From a virus (Duplodnaviria; Heunggongvirae; Uroviricota; Caudoviricetes), in the IMG/VR virus record IMGVR_UViG_2681813313_000011: a DNA stretch of 5,025 nucleotides, one strand, 5' to 3'. Both the position numbers and the translations under genes were made by a program. The notes beneath the pieces are model-generated. The model saw nothing but the letters and a program-made list of their open reading frames with translations. It did not search any database and was not told the origin of the DNA. Every line of letters starts with the position of its first letter. Within the stretch, counting starts at the first letter, position 1. Of this stretch, positions 1,376 to 1,663 are shown piece after piece.

Positions 1376-1452
1376 TGGTGCGTTGTACTGGGTTCGAACC
1401 AGTGACCGATTGCTTAGAAGGCAATTGCTCTGTCCGGCTGAGCTAAAAACGC
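1376..1452 (-). tRNA. argO: tRNA-Arg, anticodon TCT (decodes AGA)
   Basis: 77-nt cloverleaf on minus strand: GCGTTTT-TA-GCTC-AGCCGGACA-GAGC-A-ATTGC-CTTCTAA-GCAAT-CGGTC-ACTGG-TTCGAAC-CCAGT-ACAACGC-A-CCA. One acceptor-stem mismatch (T6 with C67). Encoded CCA. Third gene of an Ile-Arg-Arg cluster as in Stx-phage ileZ-argN-argO; the symbol is assigned by order. Confidence 0.85.
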
Positions 1453-1465
1453 AGAATACCGATAA

Positions 1466-1542
1466 TGGACCGCCATCGGAGACTCGAACCCCGCGAAACC
1501 AGCTTCGAAGGCTGGCGTTCTATCCCGATGAGCTAATGGCGG
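1466..1542 (-). tRNA. argN: tRNA-Arg, anticodon TCG (decodes CGA/CGN)
   Basis: 77-nt cloverleaf: CCGCCAT-TA-GCTC-ATCGGGATA-GAAC-G-CCAGC-CTTCGAA-GCTGG-TTTCG-CGGGG-TTCGAGT-CTCCG-ATGGCGG-T-CCA. Perfect 7-bp acceptor stem, encoded CCA, one C-A mismatch in the D stem. Symbol assigned by position in the cluster. Confidence 0.8.
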
Positions 1543-1549
1543 TATGTGA

Positions 1550-1625
1550 TGGTGGCCCTTGCTGGATTTGAACCAGCGGCCTGGCGATTATGAGTCGCTC
1601 GCTCTCACCACTGAGCTAAAGGGCC
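1550..1625 (-). tRNA. ileZ: tRNA-Ile2 type (anticodon CAT, presumably lysidine-modified to read AUA); elongator tRNA-Met cannot be excluded from sequence alone
   Basis: 76-nt cloverleaf: GGCCCTT-TA-GCTC-AGTGGTGA-GAGC-G-AGCGA-CTCATAA-TCGCC-AGGCC-GCTGG-TTCAAAT-CCAGC-AAGGGCC-A-CCA. Closely resembles E. coli ileX (same acceptor, anticodon-loop and T-arm pattern). First gene of the Ile-Arg-Arg cluster. Confidence 0.85.
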
Positions 1626-1634
1626 GGGCGCAGG

Positions 1635-1663
1635 ATAATAACGTTACGAAATCAATGTTGCAA
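1635..1663 (-). promoter_or_regulatory. Sigma70-type promoter for the tRNA cluster
   Basis: On the minus strand: -35 TTGCAA (1663-1658), 17-nt spacer, -10 TATTAT (1640-1635), then GC-rich discriminator CCTGCGCCC ending 1 nt before the tRNA-Ile 5' end at 1625. Confidence 0.5.

Follow-up and report, generated by a model that had tools for sequence, protein, structure and literature searches.

The stretch of 5,025 nucleotides analyzed here (hereafter, the window) carries three tRNA genes that are best explained, with high probability, as a promoter-equipped ileZ-argN-argO operon that belongs to a lambdoid, nle-carrying, non-Stx prophage and supplements the decoding of rare codons. On the basis of gene order, spacing, location, and homology, the cluster is assigned to the ileZ-argN-argO cassette of Stx/lambdoid phages. 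Earlier papers or database entries (GenBank annotations; PMC7547250, PMC2858043, PMC3636060, and PMC7946995) already describe this cluster and where it lies, as well as the promoter and the proposal that the tRNAs supplement rare codons. Since all these elements have been previously described, the cluster is real but already known. The cassette is textbook material for the biology of Shiga-toxin phages and an ordinary feature of the present prophage; ileZ, argN, and argO as gene names were not found in the open-access literature searched. Compared with the original prediction made from this DNA, our analysis introduces several corrections: (i) the expected benefit is not limited to the genes located just downstream, (ii) the arginine codon in excess is CGG rather than CGA, and (iii) the window copy has derived stem mismatches and lies beside a dead TerB gene.

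The tRNA genes and their prophage context

In the whole window, ARAGORN identified three tRNA genes and no others, each on the minus strand (Table 1), and drew a cloverleaf for every one of them. The CCA 3' ends are encoded in all three genes, and the spacers are 7 nt between ileZ and argN (1543-1549) and 13 nt between argN and argO (1453-1465). The gathering score of the Rfam family RF00005 (29 bits) is exceeded by all three genes, with E-values of 5e-15, 3e-7, and 2e-12 for the CAT, TCG, and TCT genes, respectively; these calls are far above the chance level. ARAGORN and Rfam thus agree with the original description of an Ile-CAT, Arg-TCG, and Arg-TCT cluster with 7- and 13-nt spacers, including all three anticodons. 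Several Rfam hits below the gathering score, namely Plastid-ycf2 antisense to ileZ, isrK (27 bits), snoRNAs, and asX2, were rejected as chance matches or tRNA-antisense artefacts.

Table 1. Features of the window, listed in the order in which they are read on the minus strand
Feature	Position	Strand	Basis
hokD/sok type I toxin-antitoxin locus	4393-4717	-	sok RF01794, 110 bits; hokD annotated in near-identical genome
Antiterminator Q gene	1838-2527	-	ORF list; PGAP annotation of 99.8% identical locus
pR'-like late promoter TTGCAA-17-TATATT, overlapping Q end/stop codon	1826-1854	-	promoter scan
tR'-like hairpin followed by U8, between pR' and tRNA promoter	1741-1775	-	fold; alignment with PPompW and Evi
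-35 hexamer TTGCAA of predicted tRNA promoter	1658-1663	-	promoter scan
-10 hexamer TATTAT of predicted tRNA promoter	1635-1640	-	promoter scan; 17-nt spacer
G+C-rich discriminator/leader CCTGCGCCC, between -10 hexamer and ileZ 5' end	1626-1634	-	sequence
ileZ, predicted tRNA-Ile2, anticodon CAT, CCA encoded	1550-1625	-	ARAGORN; Rfam 72.5 bits
argN, tRNA-Arg, anticodon TCG	1466-1542	-	ARAGORN; Rfam 44.4 bits
argO, tRNA-Arg, anticodon TCT	1376-1452	-	ARAGORN; Rfam 63.3 bits
TerB-family pseudogene, first gene after tRNAs	774-1206	-	PGAP "internal stop"; alignment to intact phage Evi homologue
DUF3927 ORF, 55 aa	610-777	-	ORF list; PGAP
STnc100 prophage sRNA	433-605	-	Rfam 100.8 bits; just upstream of esterase gene
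Strong G+C-rich terminator after STnc100	390-408	-	scan

On its minus strand, the window reads as the late-regulatory region of a lambdoid prophage. In this direction, the hok/sok locus is followed by a DUF968 gene, a RusA gene, Q, the pR'-like promoter, the tR'-like hairpin, and the tRNA promoter with the tRNAs; then come the TerB pseudogene, the DUF3927 ORF, the STnc100 sRNA with the terminator, and the start of an esterase gene. The pR' role is suggested by the position of this promoter directly after Q. The tR'-like hairpin is located about 75 nt downstream of it, and a G>A substitution in the window weakens its stem relative to those of PPompW and Evi. A pR'-like promoter followed by a weak hairpin and U8 would be expected to yield a short constitutive transcript analogous to StxS. 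Folding of the spacer between Q and the tRNAs revealed only the tR'-like hairpin and no unusual overall stability (z-score 0.45). The plus strand of the hairpin sequence also scans as a terminator.

The TerB pseudogene contains an in-frame TAG at 1068-1070, where phage Evi has GAG, and one extra base near its 5' end compared with Evi shifts the ancestral ATG (1206) into another frame; in the PGAP annotation, the start codon is the TTG at 1202. The STnc100 element, which a 2026 preprint relates to the PasD sRNAs, was also observed after stx2B in the Stx2a phage (L003 3231-3366) and after DUF3927 in phage Evi (L005 2615-2801). The esterase gene at the end of the window, of which only the start is present, is a NanS-p-like member of the SASA family.

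Prophages sharing 99.8-99.9% identity with the window are present in two E. coli isolates of human origin from Korea. The near-identical prophage adjoins tRNA-Ser/mtfA and includes lambda-like morphogenesis genes together with nleB2, nleC (partial), nleH, and nleF; no stx genes were found in it. According to the annotation of the near-identical genome, the integrase (L001 639-1689), a DUF977 gene (L001 8648-9056), and nleH (L014 4968-5879) are frameshifted, and the prophage looks defective in this host genome. The closest genome (99.9% identical) has an IS1203 insertion that separates the esterase and holin genes, outside the window (L002 9689-10902).

Identity of the three tRNAs

ARAGORN gives a Met label to every tRNA with a CAT anticodon. 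The ileZ gene is 88.2% identical to ileX of E. coli K-12, compared with 67.9% identity to metT/U (elongator Met) and 61.5% to metZ (initiator), and its anticodon stem-loop is the same as in ileX. The ileZ acceptor stem, GGCCCTT/AAGGGCC, contains the C4-G69 and C5-G68 pairs; such pairs are reportedly determinants for TilS (Ikeuchi et al. 2005). The PGAP label of identical and near-identical ileZ copies is tRNA-Ile. Taken together, these features characterize the CAT tRNA as a predicted Ile2 tRNA of the ileX type.

The argO gene is 70% identical to K-12 argU and has the same anticodon loop; it is argU-like and predicted to read the same codons as argU. The best match of argN among the K-12 tRNAs is 69%. 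The arginine tRNA genes of K-12 have the anticodons ACG, CCG, UCU, and CCU only, and include no UCG counterpart to argN. The body of argN is further characterized by C1-G72 as the first pair and by U as the discriminator base (U73).

Distribution of the cluster

The 331-bp cluster matches 3056 of the 5426 complete E. coli genomes, and in 2251 of these matching genomes at least 80% of its length is covered. Up to 13 cluster places were observed in one E. coli genome. The allele of the window is at least 99% identical in 326 E. coli records, and O157:H7 strains hold copies that are 100% identical to the window cluster. Among phages, 289 records match the cluster with 80-99% identity, most of them Stx2 phages. 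In a scan of one genome per species, the exact ileZ core was found in Escherichia and Shigella only, besides a few MAG contigs that probably represent contamination; this exact-pattern scan gave no evidence of a wider host range.

For the comparison of alleles and upstream regions, we used 121 loci fetched by the ileZ core, which correspond to 43 unique upstream variants; this sampling of ileZ is biased by the exact 27-nt search pattern.

Stem mismatches and allele variation

Two mismatches described in the original prediction, one in the argO acceptor stem and one C-A in the argN D stem, are both present in the ARAGORN cloverleaves: the first is U.C at the sixth acceptor pair, and the second is C.A in the D stem. 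The mismatch alleles of the window were found in four sampled loci each (of about 100 for argO). Perfect stems are characteristic of the commonest argO allele (38 loci) and of the commonest argN alleles, and both mismatches are derived minority alleles. The cost of the argO mismatch is about 7 bits (Rfam score 63.3 versus 70.1). The Rfam score of argN is low everywhere (43-44 bits), with 44.4 bits in the window versus 43 bits for the copy of the Stx2a phage; four positions that form Watson-Crick pairs in the window are represented by three G.U pairs and one A.C mismatch in the Stx2a-phage copy. Sequence variation of argN is high: about 66 loci yielded 34 variants, some of them with two or three mismatches. 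Both ileZ and argO vary far less, a difference that suggests a weaker constraint on argN.

The two Arg tRNA copies of the window may be impaired, because the mismatches are derived minority alleles and the prophage looks defective in the closest genome. A stronger version of this idea is that both Arg genes are decaying relics of a defective prophage, and that only ileZ, if any, remains useful. The minority status of the U.C and C.A alleles against perfect common stems, the fall of the argO score from 70.1 to 63.3 bits, the 34 argN variants, the dead TerB neighbor, and the frameshifted int, DUF977, and nleH genes of the closest genome all point in this direction. On the other hand, all three genes score well over the Rfam gathering score, the window argN is better paired than the Stx2a-phage copy at four positions (44.4 versus 43 bits), and the nearly identical allele is widespread, O157:H7 included. 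Many functional tRNAs tolerate single mismatches. We consider such decay unlikely as the main explanation; it is plausible with regard to function but leaves the identity of the genes unaffected.

A predicted dedicated promoter of the tRNA genes

The hexamers of the tRNA promoter, TTGCAA-17-TATTAT, match the consensus at 9 of 12 positions. The window contains 11 sites of this grade, compared with 4.6 +/- 2.2 in shuffled sequences; as a bare consensus match, the promoter is weak and not significant. Its credibility comes from its position and conservation, not from the consensus score. Four phages with differing Q/pR' regions share the block CTTGCAACATTGATTTCGTAACGTTATTATCCT without any change, and the sequences farther upstream are unalignable. 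Among the 121 sampled loci, TATTAT is present at positions -15..-10 in 109 loci and TTGnnn at positions -38..-33 in 110 loci, and the 17-nt length of the promoter spacer is kept. Averaged over the 43 variants, column conservation reaches 0.92 in the -10 hexamer and 0.79 in the -35 hexamer, compared with 0.52 at positions -70..-39. Upstream of about -60, most loci are no closer to the window than random sequences (ungapped identity 0.2 to 0.3). The footprint is conserved while the upstream DNA is unrelated, and therefore the promoter belongs to the tRNA module; it is predicted to be a sigma70-type promoter dedicated to the tRNAs.

In the Sakai Stx2 phage, the homologous tRNAs are driven from a published primary transcription start site (PMC7547250), and a tRNA promoter has been named within the Q-stx2 interval (PMC2858043). 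The earlier proposal that the tRNAs have their own sigma70 promoter and could be expressed independently of Q is thus supported by the conserved footprint and by the published start site in a homologous Stx2 phage. The G+C-rich discriminator proposed at the same time was also confirmed, as eight of the nine bases of CCTGCGCCC are G or C; across the variants, the G+C content of the block averages 0.71, and a few variants are T-rich. From such a discriminator, stringent or growth-rate control of the tRNA promoter can reasonably be inferred. No intrinsic terminator was found after argO by scan or by fold (fold z-score 0.20), and the next minus-strand terminator beyond argO is that at 408-390; thus, read-through into the downstream genes is possible.

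In evolutionary terms, the cassette could instead matter mainly as a conserved homology block, serving as a recombination anchor with which lambdoid phages swap Q/pR' modules on one side and cargo on the other, with any effect on translation being secondary. The ileZ gene is identical in 108 sampled loci, albeit in a sample biased by the exact 27-nt pattern, the DNA past about -60 is unrelated in most loci, and the cargo varies from stx2AB in the Stx2a phage (L003) to ISEc20 in another relative (L004) and TerB/DUF3927 in the window and phage Evi. However, an anchor leaves unexplained the intact tRNA genes, the conserved promoter footprint, and the encoded CCA, as well as the anticodons that track the codon excess (see below). 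It is also compatible with the codon-supplementing operon and not an alternative to it. As a principal role, we regard it as unlikely.

Codon usage of the prophage

Codon usage was compared between the CDSs annotated in the near-identical prophage (L001, L014) and a set of 39 core genes of the host located on the same chromosome (L013; 12,618 codons) (Table 2). The three codons named in the original prediction, AUA, CGA, and AGA, are indeed rare in E. coli, with 3.7, 4.1, and 2.3 occurrences per 1000 codons of the host core genes, respectively.

Table 2. Frequencies of rare codons (per 1000 codons)
Gene set	ATA	AGA	CGA	AGG	CGG
Host core genes	3.7	2.3	4.1	0.8	4.0
Prophage early genes	8.4	7.3	6.8	6.0	8.7
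Prophage late genes	6.0	4.5	4.1	3.8	16.1
sodC/nleB2/nleF cargo	21.7	15.9	5.8	13.0	1.4

The late genes downstream of the tRNAs had been proposed as the users of these codons. Support for this is limited: ATA, AGA, and CGA taken together are weakly enriched in the late genes (odds ratio 1.46, p=0.004), but CGA itself is flat (4.1 per 1000 in both the late and the host core genes), and the early genes, located upstream of the tRNAs, and the nle effector cargo are richer, with odds ratios of 2.25 and 4.4, the latter being the highest of the sets. The codon demand is prophage-wide and cargo-heavy and is not confined to the genes that immediately follow the tRNAs. The individual examples given earlier are correct but anecdotal: AGA is found at codons 10 and 16 of the TerB-like frame, counted from the TTG at 1202, and at codons 25 and 49 of the 55-aa ORF, which also has a single ATA at codon 47, and AGG is codon 10 of the esterase gene; the TerB example comes from a pseudogene.

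The CGG codon, which the original prediction left out of account, is fourfold enriched in the late genes (16.1 versus 4.0 per 1000, p=2e-19). When all 61 codons are ranked by the ratio of the whole prophage to the host, AGG, CGG, AGA, and ATA take ranks 1 to 4, and CGA takes rank 18; it is enriched neither in the late genes nor in the prophage as a whole (ranks 18 to 29). The excess of CGG and not of CGA suggests that CGG, and not CGA, is the codon served by the UCG tRNA. Provided that U34 can wobble, with UCU reading AGA/AGG and UCG reading CGA/CGG, the tRNA set fits the codon excess of the prophage. Under the Bailly-Bechet model of codon-compensating phage tRNAs, the codons that they read should be over-represented in phage genes relative to the host; the top four ranks agree with this, and the lack of CGA enrichment and the small late-gene odds ratio do not. 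This match is suggestive, not specific, as the high rank of rare host codons is in part expected for any horizontally acquired DNA. In stx2A, a cargo gene of Stx phages, 15 of the 319 codons are ATA and 6 are AGA. PMC3636060 credits Schmidt et al. 1997 with the codon-supplement idea for these tRNAs.

Exchangeable tRNA arrays after Q

The tRNA genes that follow ileZ differ among the sampled IMG/VR loci. The most common array is Arg(tcg)-Arg(tct), found in 62 loci, and Arg(tct) alone follows ileZ in 29 loci; alternative arrays after the same ileZ are Lys-Thr(tgt)-Gly(tcc) in 14 loci and Lys-Arg(tct) in 4 loci. The middle tRNA of relatives is built on the argN scaffold, with the same acceptor and T arms, and has the anticodon TTT in the loop CCTTTAA, with C at position 33. 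This tRNA, called tRNA-Lys by ARAGORN, was observed at L004 1632-1707, at L005 1673-1749, and in about 18 IMG/VR loci, and a tRNA-Lys beside ileZ is annotated by PGAP in some E. coli genomes. In one locus, the argN scaffold carries the anticodon TCT. These differences look like anticodon shifts on a single argN scaffold.

Ranks 5 to 9 of the prophage codon excess are taken by AAG, ACA, TCA, GGG, and GGA, which largely match the alternative Lys/Thr/Gly array. A possible, still tentative generalization is that the slot after Q holds an exchangeable, promoter-equipped tRNA array that tracks the codon excess, where the UCG tRNA serves mainly the fourfold CGG excess of the morphogenesis genes via U.G wobble, and its scaffold is re-targeted by anticodon shifts, to UUU with an unusual C33 in the PPompW and Evi type and to UCU in one locus. 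If true, this would refine a known system to a modest degree.

Another conceivable role is counter-defense, with the tRNAs being mainly spares that replace host tRNAs cleaved or depleted by anticodon nucleases. tRNA-Lys(UUU) is targeted by PrrC- and PARIS-type nucleases and tRNA-Arg by colicin D, the alternative arrays in the same slot include a called tRNA-Lys(UUU), and the C1-G72 and U73 body of the UCG tRNA is unlike that of any host tRNA; nevertheless, this role is quite improbable, as the ileZ anticodon stem-loop and the argO anticodon loop are the same as those of host ileX and argU and thus bear no sign of changes enabling nuclease escape, the codons served match the top four over-represented codons of the prophage, and the fit of the next-ranked AAG, ACA, GGG, and GGA to the Lys/Thr/Gly array is explained by the codon model and not by defense.

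Proposed function of the operon

The reading that we prefer, a promoter-equipped operon supplementing rare codons, suggests the following scheme. The cluster occupies the standard slot, behind Q with its pR' and tR' elements and ahead of the earliest late or cargo genes. In the lysogen, the sigma70 promoter located 9 nt upstream of ileZ would drive the tRNAs constitutively; after induction, Q-modified RNA polymerase starting at pR' would read through them. The tRNAs would be released by host RNase P and 3' processing enzymes, and host TilS would convert tRNA-Ile(CAU) to read AUA. The resulting capacity for decoding of AUA, AGA/AGG, and CGA/CGG would be spread over the early and late genes and especially over the AT-rich cargo, represented by nle genes here and by stx2A in Stx phages. 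The analysis shows the identity, structure, and homology of the genes, the promoter footprint, and the codon statistics; the transcription start, aminoacylation, modification, and any translational benefit at this particular locus are inferred.

If this scheme is correct, the cassette may raise translation of the AT-rich virulence cargo (stx2A and nle effectors) and of phage genes. The separate promoter would provide lysogens with additional tRNAs for rare codons even in the uninduced state.

Comparison with known systems

The closest annotated system is provided by the Stx2 phages of the 933W and Sakai Sp5 type, which share the Ile(CAT)-Arg(TCG)-Arg(TCT) order with the window. The annotated Stx2a-phage genes (AP012539, Stx2a_WGPS6) are 98.7%, 90.9%, and 94.8% identical to ileZ, argN, and argO, respectively, are separated by spacers of the same lengths (7 and 13 nt), and likewise follow the late antiterminator. 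Both promoter hexamers, -35 and -10, are shared by the Stx2 phage and the window, whereas the discriminator region is CCTGCGCCC in the window and CCTACGCTC in the Stx2 phage. The upstream Q/pR'/tR' region of the Stx2a phage is unrelated to that of the window, and the cluster is followed by stx2AB in the former and by TerB (pseudogene)/DUF3927 in the latter. The argN genes of the two differ by seven substitutions, among them the D-stem C.A mismatch, and argO of the window differs by G6>U and by discriminator A.

The chromosomal counterparts in E. coli are ileX/ileY, which encode the lysidine-modified tRNA-Ile2, and argU. The anticodon stem-loop of ileX and the C4-G69 and C5-G68 pairs are shared by ileZ. 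In contrast to these chromosomal genes, the window copies are phage-borne, clustered, and placed under a predicted phage promoter. For argN, with its UCG anticodon, there is no K-12 equivalent: in K-12, CGA is read via inosine by tRNAs of the ACG genes, and CGG is read via argX.

A codon-supplement role has been proposed for tRNAs downstream of Q in other lambdoid phages (PMC3636060). Phages 21, Sf6, ST64T, and SfI carry tRNA genes in the same slot after Q, but the identities of these tRNAs are Asn/Thr.
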